NCBI GenBank assembly: GCA_026770705.1
Contig: JANJGN010000007.1
Span: 109,616,001 to 109,680,000 of the forward strand
Length of the DNA stretch: 64,000 bases
Source of the DNA: Isurus oxyrinchus
Lineage: Eukaryota
Direction: 5' to 3'
Below, piece by piece: positions 13,852 through 62,800 of the stretch. Numbering within the stretch: the first letter of the stretch is position 1; every line of letters starts with the position of its first letter. A program made the position numbers and the translations under genes. Below the pieces are notes generated by a model. That model worked only from the letters and a program-made list of their open reading frames with translations, was not told the DNA's origin and did not search any database.

Positions 13852-13909
13852 CCCCACACACACACCTTAAACCAGCTTATATTTCAACTCTTTCTTGGAC
13901 TCAAACTCA

Positions 13910-20647: not shown

Positions 20648-20722
20648 CTAGAGATAAATTAAAAAACAACAAATTTCTGAATTTCCAAGTTGGATACGAT
20701 ATACTGATATATTCCTCTTGGA

Positions 20723-34375: not shown

Positions 34376-34379
34376 TAAT

Positions 34380-37300: not shown

Positions 37301-40300
37301 CCTCACTCCTGGAATGGTGAGGGGGTGTCCCCATGAGTCACCCAGCCTCCAATTCTGGTGGGGTGGCTTCCTTGTTGGCCCCACACTTTCAGCCAGAGAT
37401 CTTGGGGGTCAAGGAGCCGGTGCCAGGCCAGTTGCTGCACCTTACTGTGCACCTCGGGGGTGCGGCGCTTCACTTTGTGAATGTATACACTCCCCTGGGC
37501 GTGCAGCAGCCAGTGAGCTTCATTGAGGAAGTGTCCACTCATCTGGGATCCATCAATGAGAGTCAGTGCATCGTCCTCGGGGGCGAGGGGGGGATTTCAA
37601 CTGTACCCCCAAGGCCCAGGACTATCACAGTGCCCAGCACTGCTCACTAGGTGTGAGTAAGTTGCAGGACCTGGTCGGGCCCATTGACTAGATGGACGTC
37701 TAGCGACATTTTCATCCTGACTCCAGCGTTTTTACTTTCCTGTCATCTGGAGTTGGAGCATCCAGACTCAACTGTCTTTGTGTTTCCCAAGCATTTGTGT
37801 CCTGCGTTCTGTCTGCTTCTGTGCAGCAAGTGCCACACACGGATCACCATCTGGCATGGGAGGAGCTCACTCCATTCTGCGCTCAGATAGGGTCTGCATA
37901 CTGGCACTTTAACAACCTGCTGCTGGAGCATGAGCTGTTCCTGGACTCATTTCATCGTTTCTGGGCTGGCTGGAGAAGGAAGCAGGGGGCTTCCCTTCCT
38001 AGAGGCTTTGGTGGATCATGGGCAAGGCCCACATCCACGTCTTCTGTCAGGAGTACGCGAGGAAGTCAACAAAGAGGCAGAAATCCAGTGTCAAGGAGTT
38101 GGAGAAGAAGATGCTCCACCTGGAGGCACAACTCCATCAGCCCCATGCGGACCTGGCCCTGCGGCTGGCATACAAAGAGAAGGATTGCACGCTGTGGGAC
38201 TTGCAACTCATTGGGTCTTGTGGCACATACATGAGGTCGCGGATCCAGTTCCTTCGGGGCCTGGACTGTGGCTCCCCCTTCTTCTACTTGCTGTAAAAAA
38301 GGCACGGGGTCTGTCAGCAGCTCCTTACACTGCTGGCCGACAGCGGATCCCTTCGATCCAGAGGTCATCAGGAATATCGCCTGAGACCTTTACACTGCCC
38401 TGTTCTTTCTGGATCCATCCAGCGAGGAAGCTTGCAGAGGTTTGTGGGAGCACCTGCCACAGGTTGGCCTGGAGCTTGACCCCCCTGTAAGTCTGGGGGA
38501 GCTGACCGGCACCCACGACCGTGTCTTCAAGGGGAAATCCCCGGGGTTGGACGGGTTGATCCTGGAGTTATTCACGGCGTTCTGAGGTGTCTTGGGCAGT
38601 GACTACGTGAGGGTCCAGAGGGAGAGTATCACAACTGGAGAGATGCCCCTCTCTTGGCGGAGAGCAGTTATTGCCCTGCTGCATAAGAAGGGGGGATCTC
38701 CGCCTACTTAAAAACTGGCACGAATCTCAGCACAAATTACAAGATCTTTGCCAGAGCAATGTCTTCCCGCCTTGGTGCTGTGCTGGACCTCATGATCCAC
38801 CCTGACCAGTCCTACATGGCCTGGGCTGTTCTATATTTGATAACATCCATCTGGTCTGGCACATCCTTCACTTTTCCCAGAGGACTAGTCTGTCGAGCGC
38901 CTTCCTGTTTCTTGACTAGGCGAAGCTGTTCAACAGGGTGGATCATGAATATTTATACGGCACTCTGGGAGCATTCGGGTTCGGGACACATTTTGTGCCC
39001 GGGTCTGAGTTCTGTTCACTGCCACAGAGTGACTAGTTAAGGTTAACAGCACCCCTTTGCTTTGGAGAAAGGGGTGCATTAGGGCTGCCCGCGCCTGGCC
39101 AATTGTATTCTATCTTGTGGATCCTTTCCTGCGCCTCTTGCAGAGGTGGTTGTCGGGATTGGTTTTGCACAGACCTGGCATCAGGGTGGTCCTCTCAGCT
39201 CACGTCGATAACATGCTCCTCATCTTCACTGACCAGGCTGACCTGCAGAGGATGTGCGAGTGCCAGGAGGTCTAATCTGCTGCGTTGTCTGCCAGGATCA
39301 ACTGCGGCAAATGTGCAGGCCTCCTGGTCAGTCATTAGCAGATGGAACCCCTATCTGAGGTGCACAGACCTTTCACCTGGAGAAGGACCAGCCTCCTGTA
39401 CCTGTGGCTCCACCTTTGCCCTGCTGAGGAATCCTGGCCGGCGAATTGGCGGGAGCTGGAAGCCACCTCTTGCCTGTGGTGCTGGACAGGACTGCTCCGA
39501 ATGCTGTCTTACTGGGGTCGAGTTCTGGTCATAAACCAGCTGATTGCCACCATGTTGTGGGACTGGCTGGTCACTTTAACCCCTCCTCCGGACTTTGTCA
39601 CAAAAATCCAGAAAATGCTCATTGACTTCTTCTTCTGGGACAAAAGGCTGCACTTTATCACTGCTGAGGTTCTGAGTCTCCTGCTTAGGGAGGGTGGTCA
39701 GGCATTGGTGTGCCTATGGACCCAGGTGGCGACTTTCCACTTTCAGGCCCTGCAGTGATGTCTTTATGTCAAGCCCCCTCTGAGTTGGTGTGCCCTGGTG
39801 ATGTAATTTTTCTGCCAGGTGCATGGCCTGATTCATGACGTGCAGCTCCTGTTTGTAGACCAGAGGGGCCTTCGTGACTCCTTGCAGGTGTTGCTCGTCT
39901 TTTACTAGGACCTGATCAAAGTCTGGAACATGGCTGCCTCGTGACGCAGTTCTCCATCAAAGGGAGTAGCGGCTATCATCAGAGAGCCGCTGCTCAGGAA
40001 TCTGCCCTTCCACTCTTTTCAGCCGCTGGTGGAGAAGAGGGCTGTGGCTGCCAGGGTGACCAGAATCGGGGACATGCTGGGTAGCCAACTGCCACAGCAG
40101 TTGGTGCATCACATGCCTATGGACATCCGACTCGCAGCCAATGCCAGTCATGACTTTTGGATGGTTGTGCTCATCCCTAATCTCATCCTGGGTCTCGAGG
40201 TGGCACAAATGCGCAGTGGCCTTCCATCTGAGCATAGCACTATTTGGACAGAATTCGACATTGACCTGGAGCCCCTAACTCTCCCTTGGAATCCGGTGTT

Positions 40301-40465
40301 GCAACCTGAGCTACCTCGCAGAATTGCCCTCGGTGTCCTTTAGCACAGCACGGAGGGGTTTCCTGTATGGGCTGCTGCTGCACACCTTTCACTTCCTTGC
40401 CCTCACCCACCACCTGGACATGCGCTGGTGTGCCTTGTTGCTATCCATCGGCAGAGGCCCCCAGT
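34380..40465 (+). mobile_element. Near full-length, decayed Tx1-type LINE (ORF1 ~35320-37102; ORF2 from ~37159: APE endonuclease and RT); 3' end cut by a Harbinger remnant
   Basis: ORF1: TVETCVKALAGVVGPSAIV...GKAVFFL, LSNVLPFIP and zinc knuckle CKEVGHIQKNC. ORF2: IASLNTKG, FLQETH, GGVASL, VNVYTP, TDHH, YWHFNNLLL, KSPGLDGL, HPDQSY, SAHVDN. Many stops and frameshifts; the 5' boundary is uncertain. Confidence 0.88.
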
Positions 40466-41865
40466 GGGAGTGATTTCCTGATCCAAGGTCTCCATAGCGG
40501 CCGCCATCCTGCTAGTGTTGACATTCGTGCATTGCAATGCCGGTGCTATCACCTCAGCCTGAAAACAGATGGACTCCTCTATCCTGCTTTGCAATTCGAG
40601 GAGGGCAGTGGACATCCCTTCCTGTTGTTCCCCAGCTTGTCTTTGCAGCCCCAGTATCTGTGACATGACCAAGTCCAGAGGCTCATCATCTGACCCAGAC
40701 CCAGCAACGTTCTGGCCTCCAGCAATCCCTCAAGTGCCAGGGACCTGGGAAGTCCCTGCCTCTGCCTGCAGTGGATCAGAAAAATGATGTGCTCACCAGA
40801 TTGTGATTGTGAGTGTGAGGCTACTCAAATGCTAGGTCCCACCGAGATTTCTCTCTCTGCACAGTTGGACAATGTGGGTGAGTGCTGTGACGGGACTTCA
40901 GGGAGGGTGCCTTCAGATTCCTTGTCAGAGGTTTCTTTGGAGCTTGCTTCTAGGCTCTGGGCCCATGGACTCCATCAGCTGCTTCCTAGATGTGCCTGCA
41001 AAAGCAAGGGGAGATAATTAATGTATGGCAGTGACCTGTGAACGAGGTACGGTTGTCTGATGGATATTGCACTGCTGGATCCTCACTTGGTAGAGCAGTG
41101 CCAACCTGACTGTCTGCACAGGACCAGTCCCGGTCATCGCTGGCCAGCTGGATGGCTCTGTTTTCAAATTCTGAGAGAACTTTGAATTCCAGCTTTCCTC
41201 CACCTGTCTGCAACCTTTCCCTCCTGTTGTGAATCAGTTTGTCCTGCATAGATACAGATGAGGAGAGTGGATCAGGACGTCTGCCAGGCTAGATGATAAG
41301 TATGCCTGGAATGTGTGGATGATGAGTGGTCCCCTGGATAGGAGGACGACAATGACGATGATTGTGAGAGAGTGAAAGGTGATGTCCCTTGCATTGCTAG
41401 TGAGTGAAGGCCCTGTGTGTGTGTGATTGCTTTGCAAATATGAGTTGGGAGTGATGAAAACAGTGACTTACCCTGGCGGAATGGAGATCATTCATCCTTT
41501 TGCAGCACTGGGTGGCTGCCCTCCTCTGTAGGGCAGTTGCACTGACCACCGCTGCCACCACCTCCCAAGCTGGGTTGGTGACATTGCTACCCATCCTGCA
41601 GCCAGAACGGGGGTAGAGCACATCCTGGGGAGCCTCCACGGCATCATGCACTTGCTCGAGGGACCCGTCGTCAAAGTTGGAGGGCTGCAGCCTTTTTTCC
41701 TTTGCTGGCCGTGTCTGCCAAGCAGTGGTAGTGAGCTGGTGGTGATGAGCACTTTGCTGGCGGCTGCCTTCTAAAGATAACAGCCAGGATGATGGCGAGC
41801 CGGGCAAATGAGAGCCCGCCCACCATGGAAACAGCCTGTCTCATGGGAGTGAATATGTATTTAGG
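40465..41865 (-). mobile_element. Harbinger-like Myb/SANT ORF remnant (paralog of 3425-4945)
   Basis: SLEQVHDAVEAPQDVLYP...AWEVVAAVVSATALQRRAATQCCKRMNDLHSAR|GTAAGT...TATGCAG|DKLIHNRRERLQTGGG. Confidence 0.75.
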
Positions 41866-43851
41866 TGGTCATGCTTTATTAGTTTTCAGCAACCACAACT
41901 TATCTCAGCATTTCCAGGCTCCAGCCTGGTTACAAAAACAGCTCGGGTTCATCTGTCAATTTCTATAGACTGACACCATTTTAAAAAGTGCATGGCTATA
42001 CACATCAGCTGTGATGAGACTCAAGGAGCAATAGGCTTAGTGAAAAAAATTCCACCACTAGGATGAGGTAACAGAGATGCTGTGGCATGAGATAGAATGG
42101 AAAATTGTGCTTAAAAAAATAGAGTTTAAAGTAGGTTTTCATCAAGTATGTTTCAGAATTGAGAGCAGCTTTTCTTTTTTGCATAAATTATAGGTTCATT
42201 GACTTTTAGTATCAGATCAATATCCCAAAATAAAAAGTAGCAAAAGCCTCTGATGAGGGACTATTTAATGCAACCAATAAACTGGTGTGACTTCTTGTGC
42301 TGTACTTCATCATTTATACATTTTTAAAACAAAGCAGTTAGTTATACTTTTATTATTTTAGCTCAATTACCATTACAGTTCAGAAGTACATATTTAGAAC
42401 ATACTCGTTTAATAACAAATCATATTTGGTGCAGGATGACAGTACAAATAACTTACTACTGACAGTCACTGGAATATGAAATTAATCAAACAGAATCATT
42501 GAAAATTTACAACACTGAAGGAGGGCACTTGGCCCATTTTCTCCATGTCAGTTGATGAAGAGCTACCCTACCTTCCTGCGCTTGTTCTATAGCCCTGCAG
42601 GTCATGGCTCTTCAAGTAGACACACAAATACTTTTTAAACATAATGACGGTTTCTGCCTCTACCACTCTATCAGGCAGAGTGTTCCAGGTACCTACCAAC
42701 CCCTAGGCGAAAAAATGTTTGCTCATCTCCCTCCTAATCCTTCCACCAATTACTTATACATTCATGCTCCCTAGTTTTTGATCCCTATGCTAAGGTGAAT
42801 AGGTTGTCATTATTTACGCCTAGGCCTCCTTTGATTTTAACTATTACTTAGTTATCCCTCCACTGCTACCACTTTTAGGTTATGGTTTTATAGCTTGATT
42901 TCCATAACAATATAAGCATTTGCATAATGTAAATTTAGAACATGATCAAACGTGCAATTTGGTGAAGTATTGACAGAAATTGATAACTGAAATTGGATAT
43001 AAAGTGGAGTCTTGCAAACTAGAAATAAATGATACAGAATTCTAGACAACAGATTTAAATGAGTACTAGAATACTGTGCACATGGTGTGAATGGGAATTG
43101 GAATTCAATCCACTGACTGTAAAAGGAAATTAAAATTCTACATTGTGTATATGACTAGAGCACTGAAATATTATGAGATGTACAGTACCTGAAACAGCAG
43201 TTAAATAAGGAGCCAATAAAATGTAATATATTGGATGGAAATGAACACTAAAATTCTGAAGTGGTGGTAAAAATTGGAGGCATTGTAAGGTGAGGTGTTG
43301 ATTCCTTATCACCTATTTTATACTAATGCACAAATTCCAAATTACCCAAATCAGGCGCACATATGGCCCTGAATTCCATAGAAAGAGTATGAATGGCTGT
43401 CAGTGGCAGACTCAAATTCTGTGTGCTGGATATGAATAAGGCAATTTATTCTATGAACTAAGTGAATAGACACAATTTCCAGAGTGTGTGTGGCTGGAGC
43501 AATGGAATGGAGTTAAATTTATGTTCATTAGATTTTTCAACATGTGGGACTCCTTCAGAAATTAATTCGCTCACAATGATTCTCAGCGAAATATGAACAT
43601 CCTTCTGAAGACCCTGTCATAACAACCAAAAGTAATCAGAGATTTAAAAAAATTATCAAGTGAAATATTAATTCACAGGACAGAAATAATATTTTAGTGA
43701 GTTAACTTGTACAGATAAATGCAGTAATTTTATGACCTTGAGTCTTGCTGGAATCCTCTTGTTGAATCACATATGAAGAATACAATGGAGGTGTTATTTA
43801 AAGGGAAGCTATGATTCTTATAAAATACTTCTCAGATTTGTTTCCCCACTA

Positions 43852-44057
43852 TCAGGCACACGTGGGGTCATTGTCTCTTTTATAGTGTTTCTTGCACTTT
43901 GATGCAGTTTAGTTAACTTTTTCTACTCTGCTTGGATTCCTCTGAGATGGTGTCTGAGTGATGTGGTCTCTTACTCCTTGTCTTTTGCATTTGAGATTTT
44001 GTGTTCTTGGCTCAGAGCAGCGAACACATTGCCTCATTCAAATGATGTTTTCATGGC
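43852..44057 (-). pseudogene. Gene B cytoplasmic-tail exon with premature stops (would encode only GHENII*)
   Basis: Collinear 206-nt homologue of 7046-7251 with the acceptor retained. CGA>TGA at 44040-44038 and GAA>TAA at 43911-43909. Confidence 0.8.
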
Positions 44058-47000
44058 CTGCAAGAGAAACAGCAAGAAATATCAGGGATAGAAGTTGGCG
44101 GAACACTTCAGATATGTAAGCAACTTTATTGCCTGGATTGGTATTTTGAACCATGTTGATCAGGGAGTTTTGTGTTTGTCAAATTATTGAATGCATCCAT
44201 TTTCTAAGAAGGTACGCATTTATGTAGTACTTTTCATAACATCCCAAAGCACTCCACAAGTATATTTTGCAATATAGTCACCACTGTATCATAAGAAACA
44301 ATCAATTTTCAAACACCATTGCCCATGGACAGCAATGAGATAGTCTCCAGTTTATCTGTTTTAGTGATGTTGGCTGATTCTCAAGTCTCTTTCTAGTTAA
44401 CTGTGGTGCAACATGTGATAACCAATTTGTCATAAAGCCCTAAACAAGTGAATCAATCCTTCTAAGGCAGGATAATGGACACAGAATATGAAGCTGAAAT
44501 AGTGTTGCGGGAGAGTTGCTGTAAAACCACAATAGTCTGAAAGCATATTGTGGACCAGAAAATCTTGCCAATGTGCACCTTAAGCTACAAACCAGATATC
44601 AACACTTTAGGCTCTAAAAAGGAGAAACATTTTTATTTTACATTCAGATGTAGACTGATAAGTGGCAAGTAACATTGATGCCACACAAATGCCAGGCAAT
44701 GACCATCTCCAATAAGAGAAAATATAACCAAATCCTTTTGACATTCAACAGCATTAGCAGTGCTGAATGCCCTCCCATCAACATCCTGGAGGTTACCATT
44801 GACCAGAAATTGAACTGGACCTGCCCTATAAATACTATGGCTATAAGAACAGGTCAGAAACTGGGAAGTCTGTGGAAAGTAACTCACCTCCTGAATCCCC
44901 TAGGGCTGTTCACCATTTACAAGGCACAAATCATAAGTAAGGTGGAATACTCTTCACTTGCCTGGATGACTGCAGCTCCATCTTTGATCAGGAACTCAAC
45001 ACCATGCAAGAAAAAGCAGCCCACTTGATTGGTTCCCATCCACTGCCTTAACCATTCACTCCCTCCAGCATGAACACACACTGGCAGCAGTGTGTACCAT
45101 TTACAAGATGCACTGCAGAAACTCGACAACACCTTCCAAACTCACAACTTCTATAATCTATAAGGACAAGGGCAGCAGAGGCATGAGAACACCGCCACCT
45201 GGAAGTTTCCCTCCAAGCTGCACACCATCCTGAACTAAATTGCTGTTGCTTCATTGTCATTGGGTCAAGATCCTGGAACTCTTTTCCTATCAGTGCATGT
45301 ACCTACATCAGATAGGCTGCAGTGGTTCAAGAAGGCAGCTCACCACCATCTCTCAGACAGGAAACAAATGCTGGCCTTGCCAATGGTGCTCATATCCCAT
45401 AAAAGGATAAAAAAGTAACATTATGTATATTTAAAATAACCTATCATTTAAAAGTTTGTACAATTTGTTTCTAATGTATTTTAAATCATTAAGGTTTCTA
45501 TAAGTGTGAGTGAAAACAAATGGGGTTACTTTCCCTCAGGTTCTCCACTACCACAACTACTTTTGTTTGATGGGAAAAGTTTGTCATGTGATGGCTAGCT
45601 TGGTTATCCATTCAATAGCCTCCTGAAATGCAAGATGGTGAACAGGCCTCAGTGAGCAGGTTGATGTGATGTGTTCCATGCTCTGCGATGAACAGCCACA
45701 ATTGCACTTTGGGTCACCCCTTCTAGTCCACTTTCAGAGCAGGTAACTGCATCATCCATGCCCAGTCCGGATTCACTTGAGCCCTGAGGGACATCAATAC
45801 CAGGGGCATCTTGATGACAATCGAAATGTGGTCTCCCTGTGTGGGCTAGTTCATTGAGAACTTGCCAGCTAATGTCATCAAAACAACAAATGAGAGTGGC
45901 CTCCCAGTTTGTAAAGCATCAAATATGTTCTCTTACTCATCCACTGTAACTTCAGCAGAAGAGCAACGGGAACCCTGGAACAACTTTGTAAATGCCTTCT
46001 TACTAGCTTTTCCGTGGTATTGCAGTGGAAGCTTCAGCTACACGTGGGAGAAAATATGTAGAAATTCACCCCACCCGAAACTTATTATGGCAGTGCCTAG
46101 TTTAAGGCTTCAACAGCGTACTGCTGAAATACAATAGAATATTAATCCTTCTGAGTGAGAAATACAGGTAATAACATACCATACTTGCTTCATCCAGCAA
46201 CCTTCATAACACTAAAAAGAAATCTTGGAAGTTGCAATAGAGTCAGAAGAAAAATTAAATGTAAAAAGAGCTCTCGAATACTGTATCAGCACTTCCTAAT
46301 TAAATTGAGACTTTTGAGCTAAGGGCCAAAGGCCCATGGAGCATCTATTGTTTGTGAGTTGTACAGATGTTGGCTGAAAATTAATTTATAGCTGCAATGA
46401 CTGACAAACTTGGGATTTGGTTTCTGTTTTTGCTCTCTTCAGAGAAATTCTCACATAAAGTGATTCTTCTTTCATAATTTGAATGAATGTAGATAATAAT
46501 TTATCACTATATTCAGAGTAGACAGATTTCATTACAAATTGGGGAAACTAAGTTACAGACCAACTAAGGCTGAAGAAAGTAAAATGGAAAAAATCTGATT
46601 CAGGAAGTCGTAATTCAGGCTTTCAAATCCCTGTAGATTTTTAGAGGAAGTGAAAACTGCCAGGGGTAGGGCGTTTCACAATTAGAGGCTGAGACAGTCC
46701 CATGTATTTTCATTTCAGCAAAGTGAGGTTACAGGGAGGAAGTACATTGTTATGATGACTTATTTTGAACTTGGACAAAACAAGAGAGGAAATTCAATGG
46801 ATAAATGACCATTGTGCTATCTTCAAAATAAAGATAGACAAGAAAAGGTAAAAAGAATTTGGAGACAAGAAGGGAGCGAAGGATGAACTAAGAGATAAGA
46901 ATGGTCACAAGAAAGCCTCTTTTGATATAGCAGGATTTAAACTTTGAAAATAATTGAAAACGTGTTGTTTTAAAGTGGATATTAATCTTTTTGAAGGCAA

Positions 47001-50000
47001 CTTTTAGTGGTGTAATATAAAGTTTCAGCGGAGAATGTAGATAATAATCCAGTGGATGAAGGTCCAAATATTGAACAAAAGGTCAGCGGTTAGATTTGTT
47101 GGATACTTTGGAAGCAACATAAAAAAACAGTTTCTAAACAGTTGAAACAACCAAATTTTTGGTCACACTGAATGCTCTGTTGTAAACTAATTTGCATAAT
47201 TAATCACAAGAAAATACAGAGGTCTAAAAAGGACAGTAATGGTGGGAGTGAAAAATTGAATGCAACTCAGAGTTAAGGGGTTGGGAACAATTAAAGGCAG
47301 TGTCACAATAGGCAACAACAATTCAGAAAGTCTTGAGATAGTTCAAAAGCCATTTCAGGCACTTAGCAATCTTTGCCAAGGCTGTAGGGAAAGGGGATTT
47401 AAAAACACACTGCAAAACAAAAGGGAAATGGAATCCTAGGTCTACGTATGAGTCTGTAGAACAAAGGTGGAGTAATAAACACCCAACCTCATAAGAAAAA
47501 GGAGTCGGCCATTTGGCCCCTCGAGCCTGCTCTGCCATTCTATAAGATCATAGTTGATCTGGCCATGGTTTTAACTCTACTTTCCTGCTTGCCCCCAATA
47601 ATCTTTGGCTGCCTGGTAAATCAAAAATCTGTCTAACTGAGCCTTAAATGTATTCAGTGGCCCAGTCTTCACTGCTCTCTGGAATACTGAATTCCAAAGA
47701 TTAACCACCATCTGGCAGAAGAAGTTCCACCTCAGCTCCATCTTAATTGGGAGACCAATGCTTTTAAATTGTGCCCCCTAGTTCTAGGTTCCCCAACAAG
47801 AGAAAACATCCTCTCAGCATCTATGACCACCTTTCATTCTTCTAAACCCCAATGACTAAAGTCCCAAACTGCTCAAATGTTCCTCATAAGACTACACCTT
47901 CATCCCTTTCATTCCAGGAATAAAGCTAGTGAACTTTCTCTGAACCATCTCCACTGCACGTATATCCCTCCTTAAGTAAGAAAACCAAAAATGTACACAG
48001 TACTGTAGGTGTGGGCTCACCAATGCCCTGTTCAGTTGCAGTATCTCCATCTCCCTTGCAATAAAGGCCAACACTGAATTCGCCTTTCTAATTACTTGCT
48101 GTACCAGCATGCTAACTTTTGTTTCTTCTTGGACAAGGACATTCAGATCCCCCTGTACAGCAAAATTCTGCAGCTACTCTCCATTTAAATAATATTCTAC
48201 TGTCTGATGTTAGTGTAACTTGTGGTGATGCTGCTTGAGATACTGAAGAGGTAGTTGCCCTCTGTACCACTCTTTGGTACCATTTTTCCACAGACTAGCA
48301 TTGCAAACAGCTCTGCAAAGAGGTTCAGCCAAGTTTCGAGAAACAACTGACTATTATTATCTTTGTGTGTTGCTGTTTCAAGCTGAATGTATTTGTAGAT
48401 GATGGTACAGCTCTGCGTCTGCCTAGCCAAGACCTTAAAAAGATTGGCTCACATAATCATTGCCAGGTATGTGTACCAGGGCCTGCAGAAAGGTTAGTAG
48501 CAATTTGGCAGGTTTGGCCAATGCTAAGTCTTGATCAGCCTGCTAGTCACTATCAACATCCTGGAAGTTACCACTGAACAGAAACTGAACTAGCTGAGCC
48601 ATATAAATACTGTGGTTACAACAGCAGGTCAGAGACAGAGAATTGTGTGGTGAGTAACTTACCTCTTGTCTCTCCATAGCCTGTCCATCATCTACAAGAC
48701 ACAAGTCAGGACTATGATGGAATACCCTCCACTTGCCTGGAGAAGTATGACTTCAACAACACTCAAGAAACTCAACGCCATCCAGGACAAAGCAATCTGT
48801 TTCATTGGCACCTCATCCACAACATTCAACATTCATTCCCTCCACCACCAACACACAGTGGTAGCAGCGTGTACCATCTACAAGATGCACTGCAGGAACT
48901 CACCAAGGATCCTTCCACAGCACATTCCAAACCTGTGACCTCTACCAGGTCACAGCTAATCTATTATTTGGATCTACTGTAAGGGAATTTTAGCAATGCA
49001 CTTAGCAAAGTGTAGTGTACTTAGAGCAAGTCAACGTGGTTTTACGAAAGGGAAATCTGATTTAACAAATTTATCAAAGTTTTGAGTATGTAACTAGGAT
49101 GGTAAATGAAGGGGAACCAGTATACGTCATATACTTGGATTTCCAAAAGGCATTTAATAAGGTGCCACACAAAAGATTAATAGGCAAGGGTTCATGGGGT
49201 CTCAGGCAATACATGGCAATGGATAAAGGATTGGTTAATGGACGGGAAGCCAAGAATGGGCATAAATGGGTCATGTTCAAGTTAGCAGACTGACTCATGA
49301 GTACCACAAGGATCAGTGCTGGGCCCTCAGCTTTTTATAATCTACATTCTCTTCATCTCAGTTATTAATAACGTATCTAAGTTCACCGATGCTACACAGC
49401 CAGGCAAGAAGGTAATTAAACCGAGAGGCTACAAAGAGAGAAAGACAGGTTAAGTGAGTAAGCAACAAGGTGGCTGATGGAATATAATGTCCAGAAGTTT
49501 GGTCATAAGAATAGGAAAGCAGGATATTCTTTGAAAGATATGAAACTTGTAAATATTGATGTTCAGAGAGACCTGGATGTGCTTGTACAAGGAATGTGGA
49601 AAATTAACATGCAGGTACAGCAAGCATTTAGGAAGGCAAATGGCATATTGGCCTTCATTGAAAGGTGATTGGAGTATTGGAATAAAGAAGTCTTGCTACA
49701 ATTGTATAGTTCTTTGGCGAGACCAAAACTGGAACACTGTGTGCAGTTTTGATCTCCATATTGAGGGAAGGATCGGCTTGCATTAGAGGCGCTATCGAGA
49801 AGGTTCACTAGATTAGCCCCTGGGATGAAGGGTTGTCCTATGATATGGGATTGAGTAAATTGGGTTTATATTCCCTGGAGTTTAGAAGAATGAGAGGCAA
49901 ATCATTGAAACATACAAAAAACTGAAGGAGGCTTGATAGGGCAGATGCTGAGAGATTTTTTTCCCCACTGGTCAGGAAATCTAAAACACGAGCAGTATAG

Positions 50001-50256
50001 TCTCAGGACAAGAGGCTGATCATTTAGAACTGAGATTAGGAGAAATTATTTCACTCCAATGGTTGTGAATCTTTGGAATTCTCTACCCAGAGGGCTGTGG
50101 ACGATCCAACATTGAATCCATTTAAGGCTGGGTGGACAGATGTTTGGTCTTCCAGGGAATCCAGGGATAGGGGGAGCAGCTGGGAAAGTAGAGTGAAGCC
50201 CAAGATCAGCCAAGGTCATATTGAATGGCAGTGCAGGCTCAACAGACTGTATGGTA

Positions 50257-52555
50257 TAGAGTCATAGAGGTCTACAGCACAGAAAAAGGCCCTTTGGCCC
50301 ATCGTGTCTGCGCCAGTCAAACAAGTATCTAACTATTCTAATCCAATTTTCCAGCACTAGGCCCATAGTCTTCTATGCCATGGCATCACAAGTGCACATC
50401 CAAATACTTCCTAAATGTTATGAGGGTTTCTGCCTCTACCACCCTTTCAGGCAGTGAGTTCCAGATTCCCACCGCCTTCTGGGTGAAAAAATTCTTCCTC
50501 ACATCCCCTCTAAGCCTCCTGCCTCTTACCTTAAATCTATGCCCCCTGGTTATTGATCCCTCCACCAAGGGGAAAAGTTCCATCCTATCTACCTTACCTA
50601 TGCCCCTCATAATTTTATACACCTCAATCATGTCCCCCCTCAATCTTCTCTGCTCCAGGGAAAATAACCCCAGTCTATCCAATCTCTGCTCATCACTAAA
50701 ACTCTCCAGCCCAGGCAACATCCTGGTAAATCTCCTCTGCACTCTCTCTAATGCAATCACATCCTTCCTATAATGCGGATTCCAGAACTGCATATAATAC
50801 TCTTGCTGTGGCCTAACCAGCGTTTTCTACAGCTCCAGCATAACCTCCCTGCTCTTATATTCTATGCTTCGGCTAATAAAGGCAGGTACCTCATATGCCT
50901 TCTTAACCATCTTATCTACCTGTCCCGCTATCTTAAGTGACCAGTGGACACGTAGCCCAAGGTCCCTCTGATCCTCAGTGCTTCCCAGGGTCCTACCATT
51001 CATCGTGTATTCCTATGCCTTCTTTGTCCTGCCCAAGTGCATCACCTCACACTTATCAGGATTATATTCCATTTGCCACTGATCAGCCACACACTGTCTA
51101 TATCCTCCTGAAATTTAAGGCTATCCTCGTCACTATTTACCACCTCACCAATTTTTGTATCATCTGCAAACTTATTGATCAACCCTCCTACATTAAAGCC
51201 GAAATTGTTTATGTATACCACAAACAGCAAGGGACCCAATACTGATGGAACCCCACTGGACACAGGCATCCAGTCACAAAAACACCCCTCGACCAACACC
51301 CTCTGCTTCCTGCCAATCAGCCAATTCTGGATACAATTTGCCAAATGGCCTTGGATCCCATGTGCTCTTACCTTCGTTATCAGTCTCCCATGCCAGACCT
51401 TATCAAAAGCCTTGCTGAAGTCCAAGTAGACTACGTCAAATGCATTGCCCTCATCTACAGACCTGCTTACCTCTTTGAAAAATTCAATCAAATTGGTCAG
51501 ACGTGATCTACCCTTAACAAAACCATGCTGACTGTCCTTGATTAATCCCTGCCTCTCCAAGTATAGATTAATTCTGTCCCTCAGAATCGCTTCCAATAGT
51601 TTCCCCACCACTGAGGTTTGACTGTCCTGTAGTTCCTTTCTTCCTTCCTCCCTTCTTGAATAATGGTACCACATTGGCTGTCCTCCAGTCCTCTGGCACC
51701 TCTCCTGTGGCCAGCGAGCTACTGAAAATTATTGCCAGCGCCCCTGCTATCGCCTTCCTTGCCTCACTGAACAGCCTGGATTACATTTCAGCCAGGCCTG
51801 GAGGTTTAACTACTTTTAAGCCTGCCAGACCACTAAGAACCTCCTCCCTTTCTTTGCCAATTTTTAAAATTATATCACAGTCCTTCTGCCTGATTACATA
51901 TCCACGTCATCCCTCTCACTTGTGAACACCAACACAACATATTCATTTAGAATCCTGCCTCCGTCTTCTGGCTCCACACACAAATTACCACTATGGTTCT
52001 TAACGGGCACTACTCTTTCCCTAGTTATTCTCTTACTCTTAAGGTACTTGTAAAATAACTTTGGATTTTCCTTTATTTTACCTGCCAATGTTTTTTTCAT
52101 GCCCCCTTTTAGCTCTCCTAATTTCCTTCTTAAGTTTCTCCCCTTGCACATTCTATACTCCTCCAGGACTTCCGCTGTTTTGAGCTCTCGGTATCTGCCA
52201 TAAGCCTCCCTTTTTCTCTTTATCCGATCATGTATATCCCTGGATTTGTTGGTCCCCACTCTTTGTCTTTATTGGAATATGTTGGCCCTGTACTCTCTCT
52301 ATTTCCTTCTTGAATGAGTCCCACTGCTCTGACGCAGATTTACCTAAAAGTAGCTGCTCTCAGTCCAAATCATATCTGATCTTATTAAAATCAGCCTTCC
52401 CCCAATTTAGAACTCTTATTTCTGGCCCATCCTTGTCCTTTTCCATAATAACCTTGAATCTAACGGAGTTATGAGCATTATCTGCAAAATGCTCCCCCAC
52501 TGATATCTCTACCTCTTGCCTGGCTTCGTTCCCTAAAATTAAATCTAGGACCATA
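50257..52555 (-). mobile_element. Younger CR1 LINE insertion specific to copy B
   Basis: Long RT remnants (SQHGFVKGRS, DFSKAFDKV, FADDTKIG, LERVQRRFTRMLPGL) and a CTCTATGACTCTAT tail; absent from the collinear position in copy A. Confidence 0.9.
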
Positions 52556-54579
52556 GATGGTGTACATATAAATATATTAAAGTCTTAAACTCTTAGAATT
52601 TATTACACTAATCTTTTGAGTCTTGAGGTTATCTTATGAACTTACAACAGTATACGTAACCAATTCTGTAGATTTATGTTTCTGAAGTTGAACATATAAA
52701 ATCACATAATAGCCTCTAAATACATTTCTCAACATGTTTTTTAAATTTTGGTGCAGTAATAGTACAGATGTTTCTAGATGGATGACTTTTTAACAGAAAA
52801 AAAATATATATTATGACTTATGCTTTAAGTTTGAATTTAGGAATATATGGCCTCAATTGCTCAGTGCTCCTTATTTCCAAATCTGCTTCTTATCCAGACT
52901 CTGTTGGTCAGAACACTTTTTCATCAATTGTGCATGAAGCCTATGCTTATTAATCTGTTCAGCATCTGGTCAGGAATTTTAAATGAAAATTTGCACAGGT
53001 TGCTGTACCAATGTGCAGAGCAATACAACAGTTCAATGTAAGCTTGTGGTGTATCATAGTTTTCTAGTGGTGCAATCCTTATCTCAGCATTATCTTCACA
53101 GTGTGCTGATGTGGAAATGTTGAGTGGGCTTCAAAATCTATCTGCAAGAAATTTGATTTTGTTTTTAAATGGATGGAGCATTAGTCTTTAGAGCTGGGGA
53201 AGCAGGTGAATTCTTGGTTCAGGAAGAGTAAGGAATACAAAGAAACCTGAATAGTAAAAGGGAAAAAGTGAAACACTAAGAAAATAATGCTGATAATCAA
53301 ATGTTTTGCTCATAAATTAGGAAACAACCACCAAGACCTAGAAACGTGCCATCACGATATTTAGGTGAGCAGGCGCACGATGTTCTCAGATGCGCACCCA
53401 CCATTAATTAATCAGCTAGTGAAGGCCCTTGAGGCAGCAATTGACTGCAATTTTTCAGGGCCTGTGCAATCTTCAGGACATCACATGGGCGCAACGGGTA
53501 GGAGACATTTGTATAAACCTCATGCACTGGCAGGATAAAAGGGGTGAGCAGGGTCATGAGTGGTATGTGTCAGATATTTAATTGTGAATGTTACTGACAC
53601 TTGCCTATGTAAGCAGGAATACTTCAAAACACTTCACAGCTGCTTGGACAAGAATAATAGGCTTCAGGTCAGGACTCTGCAGTAAAGATCATTTTTGGGG
53701 CCTGCAGGTTTCAGGAAGCTTTCCTTTAGCCTGGGAATGGGAGTTGTGCTATCCCCTGGAGGCACTTCCCCTGAGGAGGAAGGGAGAGCCAGAAGGGGGA
53801 GGAAGCCAGGAGCACATTCAGCTTCCAGGACTGAGATGAGGAGAAATTATTTCACTCAAATGGTTGTGAATCTTTGGAATTCTCTACCCCAGAGGGCTGT
53901 GGATGATCCAACATTGAATACATTTAAGGCTGGGTAGACAGATCTTTGGTCTCTCAGGGAATCCAGGGATAGGGGGAACAGGTGGGAAAGTAGAGTTGAA
54001 GCCCAAGGTCAGCCAAGTCATATTCAATGGCAGTGCAGGCTCAATGGGCTGTATGGTACACTCCTGCTCCTCTTTCATTTTCTTAATTGGAGGCCTGTGG
54101 GTTGCTGGTTGCTCAGCCCCTCACTATCACTTTCAAAATTGAGACACAATCCTGAGGCACTGGAAGATTGAGACACCAGCTGGGAGTACTATTTTCAAAG
54201 TGCACCCGCACCTAATATTGCTCCCATGGGCGATTCAAAATCCAACACTCTGAATTGTACCACATTTCTGTAGAGAGTCGGAGGAGCTTTATCTTGCTTT
54301 AAACATGCTATACCTAATCTGGAAGTTCTTAGTGCCTAGAATGGAAGTGTTCTGATCTGCAAAATTAACATTGTTCACCGTGATGAGTTCAAAAGTAAAT
54401 TGGATAAAATATCATCTAAGAATTGAAGTAATATTTTTTTGTCCTAAAGTTTACTTATTGCAGATTAATAAATTAGTTCACATATCTTATCAATCTGTTA
54501 TCATTTATGTATTGGTATAATTGATGAATATTAACTCAAGAAATCCAATCATAAATGTAGTGATCTGGCTCCTCCTTAC

Positions 54580-54699
54580 CTTTAGATTTTTTGCAACAAC
54601 AGAATTCACAACAAAGTACCAGTGCAATAATCAGAAGCAGTAAAGCTATTACTCCACAGATGTAGATCCACCAAGGAAAAGTGGGATTGGAGTCATTTT
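54580..54699 (-). CDS. Gene B (paralog) transmembrane exon, intact
   Basis: ENDSNPTFPWWIYICGVIALLLLIIALVLCCEFCCCKKSK; same 120-nt length and splice sites as the copy A exon at 16045-16164. Confidence 0.85.
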
Positions 54700-56504
54700 C
54701 TGCAAGACACATGCAAAACGAAAACATAGTCATTCACTTTCAGAAGGAAAACAATGGTACAGTATGTTAGCAGGTTCTTAATTTACCTCTCAAAGCCCAG
54801 CTCATTCTGAAGGCTCTATATGGGTGATGTTATGAATTTATGCTTACTGCACAAATACAGAACACCAGTCTTCACATCCAATATTCTAATTACTGCTCTT
54901 GGGCTATAATGGATTTGATTCATGACTGTCAAACCCATAAAATTACTCTTCGTGGGGTGTAACGGGTGCAAGAATCTCAAACTTGTTCCTGTTTAGTGTG
55001 GGCTAAAACTGTCCACGATTCAGTCCAGATTAGCAATAATAGGTTATATCAATTAAATAATCCATAAGGTTGGCTAATGGGAGTGAAAAAATGCCATAGG
55101 TATAATTGATGGTGCTCTCATAAAGATGATGTTAAAAGCATTTACTCTGCATCTTAGGCATGTAGAGTTGAAGCCCAGGATCAGCCATGATAACAATGAA
55201 TGGTAGCACAGGCTCAATGGGCTGCGTAGTCTACTCCAGCTCCTATTTTGTGTGTTTGTGTGATCTTAATTGGATTCAGAATTGTTTGAATCTCTAACAA
55301 AGAAAATATTCTTCTCTGCAGCACTTGGCTTGGTCTAGATCAAAATAAAGCTCCCCCAAGCATAATTTTTAAAAAGATATATCGAAGATAAAGCAGCAAT
55401 AAAAGAATGTTACACTGAGGGAAACGCATTTGTAAAAATGCAGCAACAACTTCATAATAATAAGAAATTATAAATATTCTGGTAAAGAACACAGTTTAAT
55501 TAGAAATGCTGAAGAGAGTAGAACTTTAAACATGTATTTATTGCTTGAACTCTTGCTACAATATCTCAGTTTGCACATATTACAATAGTCAAATGTTGAA
55601 TCTTTAACTCCTTATATAGAAATCACATGAATAATTAGGATTAATGGCATCCATTTGTTTCTGTCTATCCTGTTAATGAAAAAACTTGCATTTATATAAG
55701 CATCCGTCACACCCTCGGTCAATCCTGAAATGCTTTACAGCCAGTTTAGTACATTTTAAAGTGTAGTCACTGTAATAATGTTAGAAACATGCAGCCAATT
55801 TGTATACAGCGAGGTCCCAAAAACACCAATGAAATAAATGACTGCTTCATCTGTTTCAGTAATGTCAGTTGAGATAAATGATGGTCAGGACATTGGGAGA
55901 TCTACCCTGCTCTTCTTTCAAAAGTGTCAGGGAATCTTTCATGACCACCTGAGAGGACAGATTAAGTTGCCCATCTCCTGTGGGTTAAATAATTGGTGAC
56001 AGTCAGTGTCTAAACGTACGTGTCGATGAGGTACTGGTGATGTGATAGATGTCTGTCTCTTAGAAGAGGAGGGAGGAGAAAGGTAGGAAAAACATGAGGT
56101 TACTGCCAATGGGAATGCATTCTATCTTTTACTTATCAGGTTATCTGCTCTGAGACCCCTTTGTCCAACAAGAATTAGTGTGCATCAAACAGTGAAGCTG
56201 CTGGTCAGCAAGTTATCCCTGCTTGCTCATGTCACTGTGAAACGTGAAAGGCAGAGTTCTGCTTACACACTAAAACTTATGAAGGACCATCATCAACTGA
56301 CCTCCACTAACAAGTAGCTTTCTGGTGACTTGAAAACAATTGGTGGGATTGTGAGACAACCATTTTTCTCAGTTACTCTTGCTCTAATTTTAATCTTTCA
56401 TAATTACCATCCACAAATTGCCATGTTATTGGTGTCTTGTGGCCCTCAGCACACATCATCTGAGATCTGTACTTCAGTGGTACAAATCAGCAGGCTCGGA
56501 CAAT

Positions 56505-56890
56505 GAACAATGGTCGTATAGTGGAGAAGCAACCCATAAGCATGGACTAATGATCCAGACACAAGATTTGAAATACCACCACAGAAGTTGGAAAACTTAA
56601 ATTCATTTAATTAATTAAATCTAGAATCAATGATGGTGATTATGTAACTCCTGGATTGTCATAACAACCCATCTAGTTCACTAATGTCCTTCATGAAAAG
56701 CAATTTGTCATCCTTACTCAGGCTAGTCCATATGTGACTCAAGGCCCAGTGTAAAGGAACCATCTATTCTGTATTCTGGTATAGCCTAGAAAACCTGCTG
56801 ATTTCAAGAATGCGGCTCATCACCACCCACCCAAGGGTAATAAGGGATGGGCAATAAATGTGGTGCTCACATCCTATAAATGAATTTTAA
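56505..56890 (+). mobile_element. Complete HE1-like SINE (tRNA-like head, core, CR1-type tail)
   Basis: Ends TTTCAAGAATGCGGCTCATCACCAC...AGGGATGGGCAATAAATG...CACATCC, the tail shared with the HER1-like LINEs in this window. Confidence 0.7.
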
Positions 56891-59800
56891 AAATGTCTGG
56901 CTCTGGTTCATCATGTTCACTGTTAGGGGGGAATATAGGGATATAATTTGTATTAGCTGGGATCAAGTAAATTTTTAAACTAATTATGACTTTTTTCCAG
57001 AATACTGTTTCATCAAGAATAATTGCCAATTTCAGTAGAAGACCCAGCATCACAATCTACAGCACAGAAACAAGCCATTCAGCCAAGCTAGTCTATGCTG
57101 GTGTTTATACACAAAGCAACCCACTTCCCATCCTACCTAATATCTTTCTATTCCCTTCTTAATGTGTTCATCAAGCCTTCCTTAAAAGGTGACAATGCAA
57201 TCTTCTTTAAACACAGAGATTTAGCTGTTACAAGGTCATGGATGAGGAAAATTGCTGGTTGCTCTGTGCAGCAACATTTTAAGTATATTCAGGTGGGTCT
57301 ATTTCATATAAATACATTAAATTATTTACACACTATCGCAGAGTACAGCTTCAAGGCTTAACATTACAGTTAGGAGCAGGAGACCACCAGATGATCCCTC
57401 AGGCTGCTCTGCCATTAAATAAAACAATGGTTGCTCTGATTTCAATTCCACTTTCCAGCCTGCTCCTTATTACCTTGACATCCCTATAGTTCATAAATTT
57501 GTCTGTCTCAGCCTTGAATATGTTCAATGACTTAGCTTCCACAGCTGTCTGATGCAGGGAATTCCAAAGATTCACGACTTTGAGAGAAGAAATTCCTCCT
57601 CATCTTCGTCCTAAATGGACAACCTCTCATTTTGAAACACAGTCTCTAATTATTGATTCTCCTTTAAGAGGAAAGAGCTCTCTTGGTTAAAGTTTATAGT
57701 AAAATTCTAAATGTATTCTTTCCAATTTCACTAGAATTTCCATTCAGAGGAAATTTTTATGACCATGTTTACATGGTGCAACACAAAGACCATAGTAATT
57801 TTCATTCCTCTCAATGTGTTCTGGCAGATATTTTAACATGTAAAATAGAAATAAGGCTGTTTTTTCTGAATTTTTATCTTCTCATATTAATTTTATCTTT
57901 CTGCTTCATATCATTGTGTCCAGGGACATGCATGCATAATTAAAATGCAAACATTTCAATTCATTTTCATTTAAACACCTTCAAAAACTGGTGACAAATG
58001 GCCTCAAAGCAGGGCAAAAGATGGAACTTTAACTTCCATCGCCTAAGTGAAACTACATTTCGCTATGCTACACCTGATCTGGGAGGTGCACCCTCCCAAA
58101 CGGAGGGACAGAGGGTTAACACTGGGTGTCTAAATGGGAAGATTTGCATTGGCAGCATTAACCTCAATGAGCATTTTTTCTTTTAAAATCTCAGAAAGAT
58201 GCTGTGATGTTACATATTGTCAGGAGCCAAACCATGAAAATAGTTCCATCTGATTGTTTCCCCTTGTCAGATGAGATGTACATCACTGTCAAAGTTGAAC
58301 TTCCTTTTACATAGCCTTTTTTACAATGCTCCAAAGCACTTCACCTATTTGGCCACAGCAAATTCCTATAAAGGGGAGAGGAGAAAATAAGAAGGCTAAG
58401 AGGAGATTTGATAGAGGTGTTCAAAATCGTGAGATGGGCGGACAGAGTAGATAGGGAGAAACTGTTACCACTCGTAAAATGATCAAGAACAATGGGGCAC
58501 TGATTTAAAATGATTTGCAAAAGAATGTGAGAAATAACTTTTTCACACAGGTCTGGAATGCACTGGAAGGAAGTGTGGTAGAGGCAGGTTCAATTAAGGC
58601 ATTTAGGAGGGCATTAGATGATTATTTAAATAGAAACAATGTGCAGGGTTACGGAGAAAAGGGAGAATAATGATGCTGAGTCATAATGCTCATTCAGAGA
58701 GCCAGTGCAGAATGAAGGGCCAAATGGCCTCCTTTTGCACTGTAACAACTCTGTGTTTCTGTGATAAACAATGAGATCAGTTTTTTGATGATTTTCCTTG
58801 TGGGATGTGTGTTGACCAGGACACTGGGATAACACGCCTGCTCTTTTTTTTTAATAGTACCATGAGATTTTATACTTGCACCCGAGTGGGTAGTCATGTA
58901 CTTGGCTTAATGTTCCATCTGGATTGCACTGAATTTCAGACAATGTACCTAAGTCTTTGAAGTGCTGCTTGAATTCAAACCCAACCTAAATCAGAATGTA
59001 CTAATCTACAATTAAAACAAGTCTATGAAATTATAATAATTCAGCCTAGAACCAGGGGATAAACATTTTTGATTGGATGTGAAAGGTTTAAGAAAGAGGA
59101 CAGGAAAAACAGTGGGAAGTTCATAGGTTTGACCTAATAGCTATTACAGGGATGTGGTTGCAAAGTGACCATGGTTTTCAACTAAATATTCATGATACTT
59201 AACTTTTAGAAGACATAGGCAAAATAGAAAAGGAGGAGGATAGCCCTGACAATAAAGAATGGGGTGAAGTCAGTGGAGAAAAAATGGACCTTAGCTCAGA
59301 AAATCAAGAAGTAGAATCAATTAGGTTGGAGCTAAGAACATGGAAGGTGTGTCCACGATGTGGCCAAAGAAGTTGACTACCAACCTGTAAATTCTTCCAA
59401 TATGCCTGATGGCAGGCAGAAAGAGCTGGAGAGTTTCCTGGTCAGTCATACTGCATAAGGCAACAGCAATCTACTGCAATGCTTTGCCAAACATAATGAT
59501 CGAGCAATGCAATGAAAGTCCATGATCTCCATGGGCACGGTACCTAAAGGAGGAAGGGGAGCTAAGAAATAGCAAGGCACAGAAACATTTGTAGGAGTTG
59601 TTTATAGGCCACCTAGCTTTAGTTGTAGTGTAGGGCAAAGTATAAATTAGGAAATTAGAGGTGCATAATATAAAGATAATACAGTAGTCAGCGGGACAGT
59701 AATCTTCATTTAAGCTGTGCAAACCAAACTTGCAGTAATAGTGTGGAGGGGGGAAGTTCATGCAATGTATAGAAGATAGTTATATAAATCAGTATGGTAA

Positions 59801-62800
59801 GGAGCCAAACAGGGAACAGGCAATTTTGGATTTAATATTGTGCAATGAGAATGAGTTGATTAATAGACTTATATGGACCTTTGGGGAAGAGTGGCCATAA
59901 AATAATAGAATTTTATATTGAGTTTGAAAATGATTTACTTGAAACTGAAACTAGGGTCTTAAATTTTAAAATAAACTATGTAGACTAAGATAAATTGGGA
60001 AACTACATTAAAAGTTATCACGGGGACAAACATTTCAAGTAAAAAGACATAGTTTGCAACAATTATAAATTCCTTTAAGACACAAAAAAAACCAAAGAAA
60101 AAGTGTTTCAACCATGGTTAACAAGAGGAGTTAAGAATAAGAAAAGATCAAAAGAAGAAAGTTACAATGTTGCAAATGAGCAGTAAGCCTGAGAATTGGA
60201 AAAGTATTAATATTCAGAAAAGGAGGACCAAGAAATTGTTAAAAGAGATGAAGAAAAAAAAAGTCTAACAAATTTGATTGAATTTTTCAAGGAGGTGACT
60301 AGTTGTGTAGATGACGGTAGTGCAGTTGCTGTCGTCTACATGGAATTTAGTAATGCTTTTGACAAGGTCCCGCATGGGATAATGGTCAAGGAGGTTAAGA
60401 GCCCATGGGATCCAGTCAATTTGGCAAATTGGATCCAAAATTGGCTTAGTGGCAGGAGGCAGAGGGTGTTGGTCGATGGTTGTTTTTGTGATTGGAAACC
60501 TGTGACAAGTGGTGTACTGCAGGAATTGGTACTGGGACCCTCGTTGTTTGTAGTGTGCATTAATGATTTAGACATGAATATAGGAGGCATGATCAGTAAG
60601 CTCACAGCTGACACAAAAATTGGTGGTGTCGTAAATAGTGAGGAGGAAAGCCTAAGATTACAGGAGAATATAGATGGGCTGATAACATAGTCAGAACAGT
60701 GGCAAATGGAATTTAATCCAGAGAAGTGTAAGGTGATGCATTTTGGGAGGATTAACATGGCAAAGGAATACACAATGAATGGTAGGACCCTAGGAATTAG
60801 AGAGAATCAGATGGATCTTAGTGTACATGTCAATTGATCCCTAAAGGCAGCAGCACAGATAGAAAAAGTGGTTAAGAAGGGATATGGGATACTTGCCTTT
60901 ATTAGCCGAGGCATAGAATATAAGAGCAGGGAGGATATATGGGAGTTGTATAAAACACTAGTTAGAGTACCGTGTGCAGTTCTGGCCACACCTATAGGAA
61001 GGATGTGATTGCACTGGAAAGGGTGCAGAGGAGGTTCACCAGGATGTTGCCTGGGCAGGAGCGTTTCAACTGGGTCAGCTAGGGTTGTTTTCCTTAAAGC
61101 AGAGAAGGCTGAGGGGGGGAACATTATGGGAGGCATAGAAAAGGTATAAAGGAAAAAGCTTTTCCTCTTAGCAGAGTTGTCAATAACTAGGGGACATAGA
61201 TTTAAGGCAAGGGGCAGAAGGTTTCGAGGGGATTTGAGCACTCAAAATGCCATAGTGTACAGGGCTATGGGCCAAGTGCTGGGAAGAGAGATTAGAATAG
61301 ATAGGTGATTGCTGGCCAGCAGAAACATGATGGGCCGAAGGACCTGTTTCTGTGCTGTATAACTCTATGACTAAATTCATAAAAACCGATTGTGGTTTTT
61401 TTCTATATATATATAAATTGAAAGAAATTAGTTAAAGTAAATGTGGGCCCATATGAGGCAGAGAAAAGTGAAATTATAATGGGGAATAAGGAAATAGTAG
61501 AGATATTACACAGATATTTTGTATCTGCTTCATGGTGGAAAAAATATTCTGCAAATAATGACCTACCAAATGTCTAGCAAAAATGAGGAACGTGAAAATC
61601 AGTATGAGTAGAAAAATAGTACTGGAGAAATTAATGGGACTAAGGTGACAAATCCCTGGACCTGCATCCTGGGTTTTAATGGAGGAAGCTGCAAGTGATA
61701 ATGGATGAATTTTGATCATCCAGAATTCCTTAGATTTTAAAACAATTCTGAAGGAGTGGAAGGTAGCAAACATAAACCCAACTATTTGATAAATGAGAAA
61801 GCTGGGGATCATGAGCCAGATATTCTAACATCATTAGCAGGCAGAATGGAGAATCTATTGTTTGGGGCATGGTAACAAGGCACTTAGAAAATCATAATAT
61901 GATTAAGCAGAGTCAACATGGATTTGGGAAAGGAACCTGATGTTTAATAAATCTGTTAAAAGTTTTTGAGGATGTGACTAGGAAATGGATAAAGGGTAGA
62001 TAGTGTATTTAGACTTTCGAAAAGCATTCAACAAGGTGCTGCACAGGAGGTTATTAAACAAAATTAGGACTCATAGGATTTGTGGTAATATAATAGCATA
62101 GTTGGAGAGAAACCAAAAAGAGTAGGACATTTTTGGTTTGACAGGCTGCAGTTAGCAGGGTACCACAAGGATCAATACTTGGACCTCAGCTTTTTACAAT
62201 CTATATTGGTAACTTAGATAAGGGGACTGAGTGCAATGTAGCCAAATTTGCTTGTGATACAAAGTTAGATGGAGAAGTAAGCCACGAGGAGAATGTAAAA
62301 AGGCTCAGAGAAACATAGACAAGTTGGGTGAGTGGACAAGAGCAAGGCAGATGAAACATAAATATGGTGAAGGTGAAGTTGCACACCTTGGTAAAAAAAA
62401 GAAAAGCAGAATAGTTTTTTGAATGGTGAGAGGCTGGGAAGATGTTTCATTTCAGGGGGACCTGGGTGTTCTTGTACAAGAATCACAAAGTTAACACACG
62501 AGTGCAGCAAGCAATTAGGAAGGCCAATGATGTGTTAAGTTTTGTGGCAAAGGGACTAGAGCATAATAGTAAAATAAGTCTTACTACAATTATACAGGGC
62601 ATTGGTGAGACCACACCTGGAGTATTGTGTGCCGTTTTGGTGCCTATACTTAAAGAAGGAGCTACTTGCCCTGGAGGGAGTGCCACAGGGGTTCAGAAAA
62701 AGATGAGGGAATTGTCCAATGAGGAGAGGCTGAGTAGGCTTGCCCAATGTTTCCTAGAGTTTAGAAAAATGTGAGTTGATCTAACTGAAACCTGTAAAAT

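Follow-up and report, generated by a model that had tools for sequence, protein, structure and literature searches.

Copy B of an elasmobranch V-C1-TM receptor gene is probably a 5′-truncated pseudogene with borrowed transcription

Results

Gene A and its array

The window, that is the whole 64,000-nucleotide stretch of Isurus oxyrinchus DNA analysed here (contig JANJGN010000007.1, positions 109,616,001 to 109,680,000), carries a receptor gene of 327 codons, gene A, and a partial copy of it, copy B (Table 1). Positions above 64000 carry the window scale on into the adjoining contig sequence. Five RNA-type runs with the same species label were used (X20-X24, three samples), and both the C1-TM and the TM-tail junctions of gene A are present in contigs of X20, X22 and X24. 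Gene A aligned over its full length with 15 of 115 candidate proteins, all of them from sharks and rays (V 56-99%); a white shark protein matches its V exon at 99% identity and shares a 90% cluster with a basking shark protein, which places the animal among the mackerel sharks. Gene A is thus a real, old and expressed gene encoding a conserved elasmobranch V-C1-TM receptor. Its domains are V-set and C1-set, with UrIg2, B7H6 and SIRP-alpha among the best PDB matches, and the automatic names of its homologs (NCR3LG1, SIRP, tapasin, Ig lambda) are inconsistent across species. The tail of 78 residues is tyrosine-free and carries a CxxC motif, with a Cys-rich juxtamembrane stretch. None of the 11 TM-bearing orthologs of A contains an ITIM-like motif or a charged TM residue.

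Table 1. Positions of gene A and copy B features on the window scale.
Feature	Position	Strand	Remarks
Gene A leader exon	31274..31328	-	No counterpart in B
Gene A V exon (single exon with V and J-like parts)	30700..31005	-	No counterpart in B
Gene A C1 exon	20351..20647	-	No counterpart in B
Gene A TM exon	16045..16164	-	C1-TM junction in RNA contigs
Gene A tail exon	7046..7251	-	Open, no tyrosine; TM-tail junction in RNA contigs
Duplicated block B	39245..64000	-	Matches A 2250-29410; continues about 445 bases beyond the window end
Copy B 3′ UTR remnant	43445..43851	-	AATAAA at 43450
Copy B tail exon, coding part	43852..44057	-	TGA 44040-44038, TAA 43911-43909; spliced to B TM exon in RNA
Copy B TM exon	54580..54699	-	Intact frame and splice sites; matched by RNA contigs with 0 mismatches
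B-specific unspliced RNA, upstream of TM exon	55537..58283	.	Strand and ends unreadable from contigs
Gap for the C1-bearing segment of A in B	56664..56945	.	A 18113-21616 missing

A search of the 4.98-Gb genome placed gene A in a large array. The count of array units, which a sequence-only reading of this DNA had proposed, came to at least 47 V exons on the contig (47 of the 50 matches listed), 17 at 96.4-97.6 Mb, 29 at 108.6-110.0 Mb and 1 at 114.8 Mb. Six of the 30 array V exons taken contain an internal stop. Forty three cartilaginous-fish homologs were examined, of which 33 have a TM segment; by simple patterns, 8 of these 33 have ITIM-like tails and 9 a charged TM residue, with one protein in both groups (three bony-fish matches, P0043, P0045 and P0046, were left out of this count). 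No description of the array or the locus was found in the literature searched, and we do not claim novelty.

Structure of copy B

Block B is collinear with A over 25 kb, retains its introns and is 85-89% identical over most of its length. As the sequence-only reading had stated, the TM exon keeps its frame and splice sites: it comprises 120 nt with acceptor TTGCAG, donor GTAAGG and an open frame, and encodes no basic or charged TM residue. Its two further claims on the exons, a tail disrupted by two nonsense changes and the loss of the C1 exon, were also borne out. The tail stops are a TGA at codon 6 (CGA>TGA), which is a common CpG transition, and a TAA at codon 49 (GAA>TAA), whilst A 18113-21616, the segment with C1, is represented in B by about 280 nt in its stead. 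The two copies cease to be homologous beyond A ~29410 (B ~64445), which leaves the V exon of A 1.3 kb further on.

A V exon of B had been predicted 1.7-2.3 kb past the window end. None was found there by blastn, nhmmer, family profile or genome search. The 1-kb V-leader stretch of A has a single genome match, which is itself, making the V-leader-promoter stretch single-copy, and DNA searches with A 29.4-31.6 kb and the C1 regions returned only a short repeat. Family profiles, made from 30 V and 10 C1 exons, were used to scan 262 kb in six frames, a stop counting as X. They gave no match on either strand between the V exon of A and the plus-strand gene at 119.4 kb (31-119 kb), and no same-strand V or C1 was found upstream of B within 108 kb. 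A leader scan over 64.6 kb of minus strand recovered both control leaders and yielded one candidate, a frame at 105.9 kb, which was rejected as a receptor leader as it overlaps the upstream region of OGFOD1 exon 1 in another frame. Use of a neighbour's V exon by B was likewise rejected, the closest upstream V genes being on the opposite strand; all 7 V matches listed for 109.73-109.99 Mb have the opposite orientation, and the next same-strand V listed lies 5.1 Mb away. Pfam matches in 78 minus-strand frames of the gap comprised one to OGFOD1, three retrotransposon frames and one below threshold. Rfam gave no match in 124 kb, and a protein search with the B TM stretch, a weak search, found no match among 3 candidates. 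V-leader, C1 and family profile matches are all lacking, and the 262 kb examined contain no N gap; B therefore lacks an ectodomain, a leader and an A-type promoter.

That the 5′ truncation is an assembly error is highly unlikely. The ~64445 junction, as read from the assembly, lies in a 184-Mb contig free of N, and since A and B differ by 9-12% a second V exon should have assembled or matched separately, yet only one match exists. Moreover, V is lacking in two other copies as well. Four full copies of the TM region, and four of the tail region, exist in the genome, namely A, B, C (109.30-109.31 Mb) and D (108.73-108.75 Mb). Homology ends before V in both of the latter; C is broken by a C1 stop and a frameshift in the tail, D by a frameshift in C1 and a stop in TM. 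A and B are mutually closest (shared-site counts 11/7/0, 35/21/16 and 38/16/16). In a DNA run of a second species, of which 48% was read, contigs were 96-99% identical to B introns, and B therefore predates that species split; no B-type contig over the TM exon was among the second-species contigs listed from this part of the run.

Divergence and selection

The TM exons of A and B differ at 9 of 117 coding nucleotides, with 6 replacements (6 amino acids) and 3 silent changes. Polarised by outgroups C and D, the A branch carries 3 replacement and 2 silent changes and the B branch 3 and 1, and three of the six replacements, including E/D, fall on the branch of A. The sequence-only reading had called the TM changes mostly conservative; L>I, A>V and E>D are indeed real, but I/T, a second A/V and K>E had been omitted. 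Introns of A and B diverge by 12% in two flanking alignments and by 9% around the TM exon, and the TM exon divergence of 9/117 against the 12% of introns gives p = 0.09. The TM exon stays open with both splice sites in 33-37% of neutral simulations, and its pN/pS is 0.76 (p = 0.47, at low power with 4 changes on the B branch). On this test, a weak one, the intact TM exon therefore does not point to selection.

The tail presents a different picture, with 32 of 201 nucleotides differing between A and B, 28 of them replacements. On the B branch there are 17 changes in 201 against 4.4% expected (p = 0.008), which is more than drift, and 16 of these are replacements and 1 silent (p = 0.04 for kind). 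Two tail stops arise in 4-7% of neutral simulations. Plain neutral decay thus falls short of a full explanation for the excess of changes in the B tail. The per-exon substitution comparison that had been proposed gives a non-significant ratio for the TM exon and a replacement-rich B branch for the tail. Overall, the exons of B appear to be decaying without purifying selection.

RNA from copy B

Paralog-specific RNA, another of the proposed checks, was found in one sample. A 386-nt contig of X20 matches 54699-54579 with 0 mismatches and 44056-43796 with 2, and a 257-nt contig of X22 matches 54579-54609 with 0 mismatches and 43831-44056 with 1; the halves of each contig were paired by length, depth and complementary positions. 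The TM-tail junction of B is thus present in 2 of 5 RNA-type runs and 1 of 3 samples (X20 and X22 being one sample), at a depth of 2-4. The TM contigs have 0 mismatches to the B TM exon and 9 to the A type, and a B-specific contig covers 43479-43720 of the 3′ UTR remnant with 0 differences. A processed retrocopy was rejected as the source, an intronless TM-tail copy being absent from the genome. Each of the 4 places in the genome that match the TM region has intron sequence on its flanks, and the TM-tail contigs therefore reflect splicing. Copy B is spliced into RNA with locus-specific contigs, so that the claim of a transcribable B whose first stop lies in the last exon holds. The one or two differences between the tail contigs and the genome might mean that one of the stops is absent in that animal.

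Upstream of the TM exon, at least 11 unspliced pieces from X20, X21 and X22 (one sample) cover 55549-58283 with 0-2 differences each. The lowest piece stops 7 bases short of an AATAAA at 55542 on the minus strand, no more than a weak hint, as the contigs show neither strand nor ends. No B cover was seen in X23 or X24, nor a B TM contig among the X21 contigs listed, and we do not take this as absence.

The X20 contig also bears on what precedes the TM exon. Four letters stand before it, and the alignment does not extend into the G of the acceptor, although it extended over single matching letters elsewhere; the upstream exon in the RNA would therefore not end in G. The leader, V and C1 exons of A all end in G. 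This tells against the proposal of the sequence-only reading that makes B a short V-TM receptor, a decoy or the paired partner of A. The open TM exon, the spliced RNA and a first stop in the last exon would suit such a receptor, as would the ITIM-tailed and charged-TM members of the wider family. However, V, C1 and leader exons are absent from sequence free of N gaps, B lacks a charged TM residue and A lacks an ITIM, and for this assembly we regard the proposal as refuted.

The neighbouring gene OGFOD1

The nearest same-strand gene upstream of B is OGFOD1, first signalled by a Pfam Ofd1_CTDD match at 83.4 kb and confirmed by comparison with human OGFOD1 in the PDB. It lies on the minus strand (G000:C7:109721830-109685403), with 13 exons running from 105830 to 69403 on the window scale, and its open frame of 547 aa is identical to amphibian OGFOD1 at 347 of 548 positions. 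His155, Asp157, His218 and Arg231, which we take to be the catalytic residues, are all present. All 9 genomic matches fall at this single locus (in a stricter first look). The stop at 69403 is 5 kb from the edge of B and 14.7 kb from the B TM exon. Exon 1 sits within a single-copy CpG-rich stretch; between B and the OGFOD1 stop there are no CpG-rich windows, the others being a repeat at 81 kb and V exons.

Transcription of B, as a pseudogene fragment or lncRNA, could also start independently of OGFOD1, at a cryptic promoter or one within a transposon in the interval that separates OGFOD1 from the TM exon. Repeat-like sequence makes up about 35% of the 64-119 kb stretch, the RNA pieces listed upstream of the TM exon reach no further than 58283, and the OGFOD1-B junction is one we infer rather than see. 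Given the lack of a CpG-rich window between B and the OGFOD1 stop, and a same-strand housekeeping gene ending 5 kb away, we nevertheless consider such a promoter unlikely.

A second possibility is that an OGFOD1 exon is joined in frame to the B TM exon. The receptor fragment would then have been recruited as an OGFOD1 3′ end (exon 10 or 11 to TM), giving a mackerel-shark isoform of the ribosomal prolyl hydroxylase tethered to the membrane, with the catalytic domain, an anchor and 6 further residues, from an RNA escaping decay. Exons 1, 4, 5, 10 and 11 end in phase 1, matching the B TM acceptor, and a phase-1 exon joined to TM would run in frame to a stop 20 nt into the last exon, which shortens the tail to anchor length. 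The exon 10 product is a predicted 477-aa fusion that retains the catalytic residues, and, as in just one other OGFOD1 exon, the last letter of exon 10 is not G, in keeping with the X20 letter before TM. However, the other is the out-of-frame exon 7 (its best-scoring donor is weak, and a canonical donor 4 bases earlier gives phase 0 with length unchanged), and a non-G letter also ends 15 of the 19 cryptic donors lying between the stop of OGFOD1 and the B TM exon. Read-through usually joins from the penultimate exon, according to the accessible part of PMC2953495, and this exon of OGFOD1 is phase 0 and out of frame with B TM. The TM exon moreover carries no selection signal, and the first stop arose by a frequent kind of mutation. 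We therefore hold this fusion to be quite improbable. No description of OGFOD1 read-through was found in the literature searched.

Discussion

We think it probable that copy B is a 5′-truncated unprocessed pseudogene of A, of which TM and tail are left, that is spliced, likely as OGFOD1 read-through, and likely makes no useful protein. Read-through from OGFOD1 would be the simplest source of its RNA. A local duplication would have placed a copy of A between OGFOD1 and A, in which the V-leader-promoter part, like C1, was never copied or was deleted afterwards. Polymerase passing missed OGFOD1 poly(A) sites would enter B, and the read-through RNA would either stop at the intronic AATAAA or splice into the B TM acceptor and then to the tail exon. 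RNAs starting from 3′ UTR donors or from phase-0 or phase-2 exons would reach a stop at least 69 nt before the last junction and become decay targets by the usual 50-nt rule. With introns after the OGFOD1 stop or a shifted frame, most read-through RNAs would be decay substrates, and the exons of B would decay free of purifying selection. Read-through splicing is common between close same-strand genes, with a median gap of 10 kb in the available portion of PMC2953495.

The sequence-only reading had named a simple pseudogene as its alternative. This is supported by the two stops, by the absent V, C1 and leader and by the lack of visible purifying selection, but B is not silent, since transcripts are present, and to that extent it is not so simple. 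On the likeliest reading, copy B is an ordinary remnant left by a receptor array that evolves by birth and death. It also serves as a warning that an intact exon and spliced RNA can stem from the run-on transcription of a neighbour. If true, the OGFOD1 fusion would show in clear form how an immune pseudogene can supply a housekeeping enzyme with a membrane anchor. A larger lead comes from the array itself, with its V exons numbering at least 47, joined V-J-like exons, C1 partners and homologs of both ITIM and charged-TM type.

Gene A resembles B7H6 (NCR3LG1), SIRP and UrIg2-type proteins in its V-C1 arrangement and differs from them in its Cys-rich juxtamembrane stretch and CxxC tail. The array is like SIRP, KIR, LILR and PILR, as described in the accessible parts of PMC3533184 and PMC5112662, in being clustered, in frequent duplication and loss and in having members with an ITIM-like tail or a basic TM. 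By the criteria given in the former part, the wider family has the look of paired receptors, yet copy B and gene A do not form a pair of this kind. B lacks an ectodomain and a charged TM residue, and the tail of A is tyrosine-free; the two share no ligand-binding domain, no signal-peptide exon stands upstream of the B TM exon, A has no ITIM and the B TM segment has no basic residue.

Copy B is like the conjoined transcripts of PMC2953495, as far as the available text describes them, in its same-strand arrangement, the 5 kb gap and entry at an internal downstream exon, with OGFOD1 as the adjoining same-strand upstream gene. It differs in that the downstream partner is a gene fragment and that the junction to OGFOD1 is a predicted one. 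Copy B may also be compared with the transcribed unprocessed pseudogene, a GENCODE biotype. Unlike a typical example, B has lost the whole 5′ half and the parent promoter and is probably transcribed from an unrelated neighbour. As in that biotype, in so far as the accessible part of PMC3431492 sets it out, B is a duplicate that has kept its introns, carries disabling changes and gives rise to a spliced, locus-specific transcript (in one sample) distinct from that of its parent.

Extra copies of gene A

The V and leader exons were missing from all three extra copies (B, C and D) of gene A, the V-C1-TM-tail receptor gene, and each copy ends at a different position within the V-C1 intron. Over A 20905-26791, D (89%) is nearer to A than B is, which suggests gene conversion. 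A decayed retrotransposon-like sequence separates A from B and may have had a role in the duplication; related pieces lie at window 2250-4841. The LINE-like inverted pair of A is absent from B.

Changes in the tail exon of B (window 43852-44057) are about twice as many as expected, and 16 of the 17 are replacements. In 4 of 15 annotated A ortholog proteins, from four shark genera, the TM exon is skipped in frame. Such a form would be a secreted V-C1-tail protein and would make a better decoy candidate than copy B does. Two cysteine features of A may serve in palmitoylation or metal-bridged kinase binding.

Features of gene A, its copies and their surroundings (C7, contig JANJGN010000007.1)
Feature	Position	Strand	Remarks
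Copy C	C7 109.30-109.31 Mb		
Copy D	C7 108.73-108.75 Mb		
OGFOD1	G000:C7:109721830-109685403	minus	intact, single-copy
Retrotransposon-like sequence	window 32400-41870		decayed, GC-rich; between A promoter and B
Inverted pair of LINE-like fragments	window 11980-14010		TM-tail intron of A
Cys-rich stretch after TM of A	window 16045-16090		conserved sharks to rays
CxxC in tyrosine-free A tail	window 7200-7235		conserved sharks to rays

The receptor array

At least 46 joined V-J-like exons were found in two clusters on C7 (96.4-97.6 Mb and 108.6-110.0 Mb), most of them with a C1 exon close by. The housekeeping gene OGFOD1 sits inside the array, where gene orientation switches from minus to plus, and offers a synteny anchor for naming it. 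No published description of this V-J-like/C1 array was found in the literature searched. Its shark and ray homologs include both ITIM-tailed members and short-tailed members with a charged TM, as do paired receptor families.
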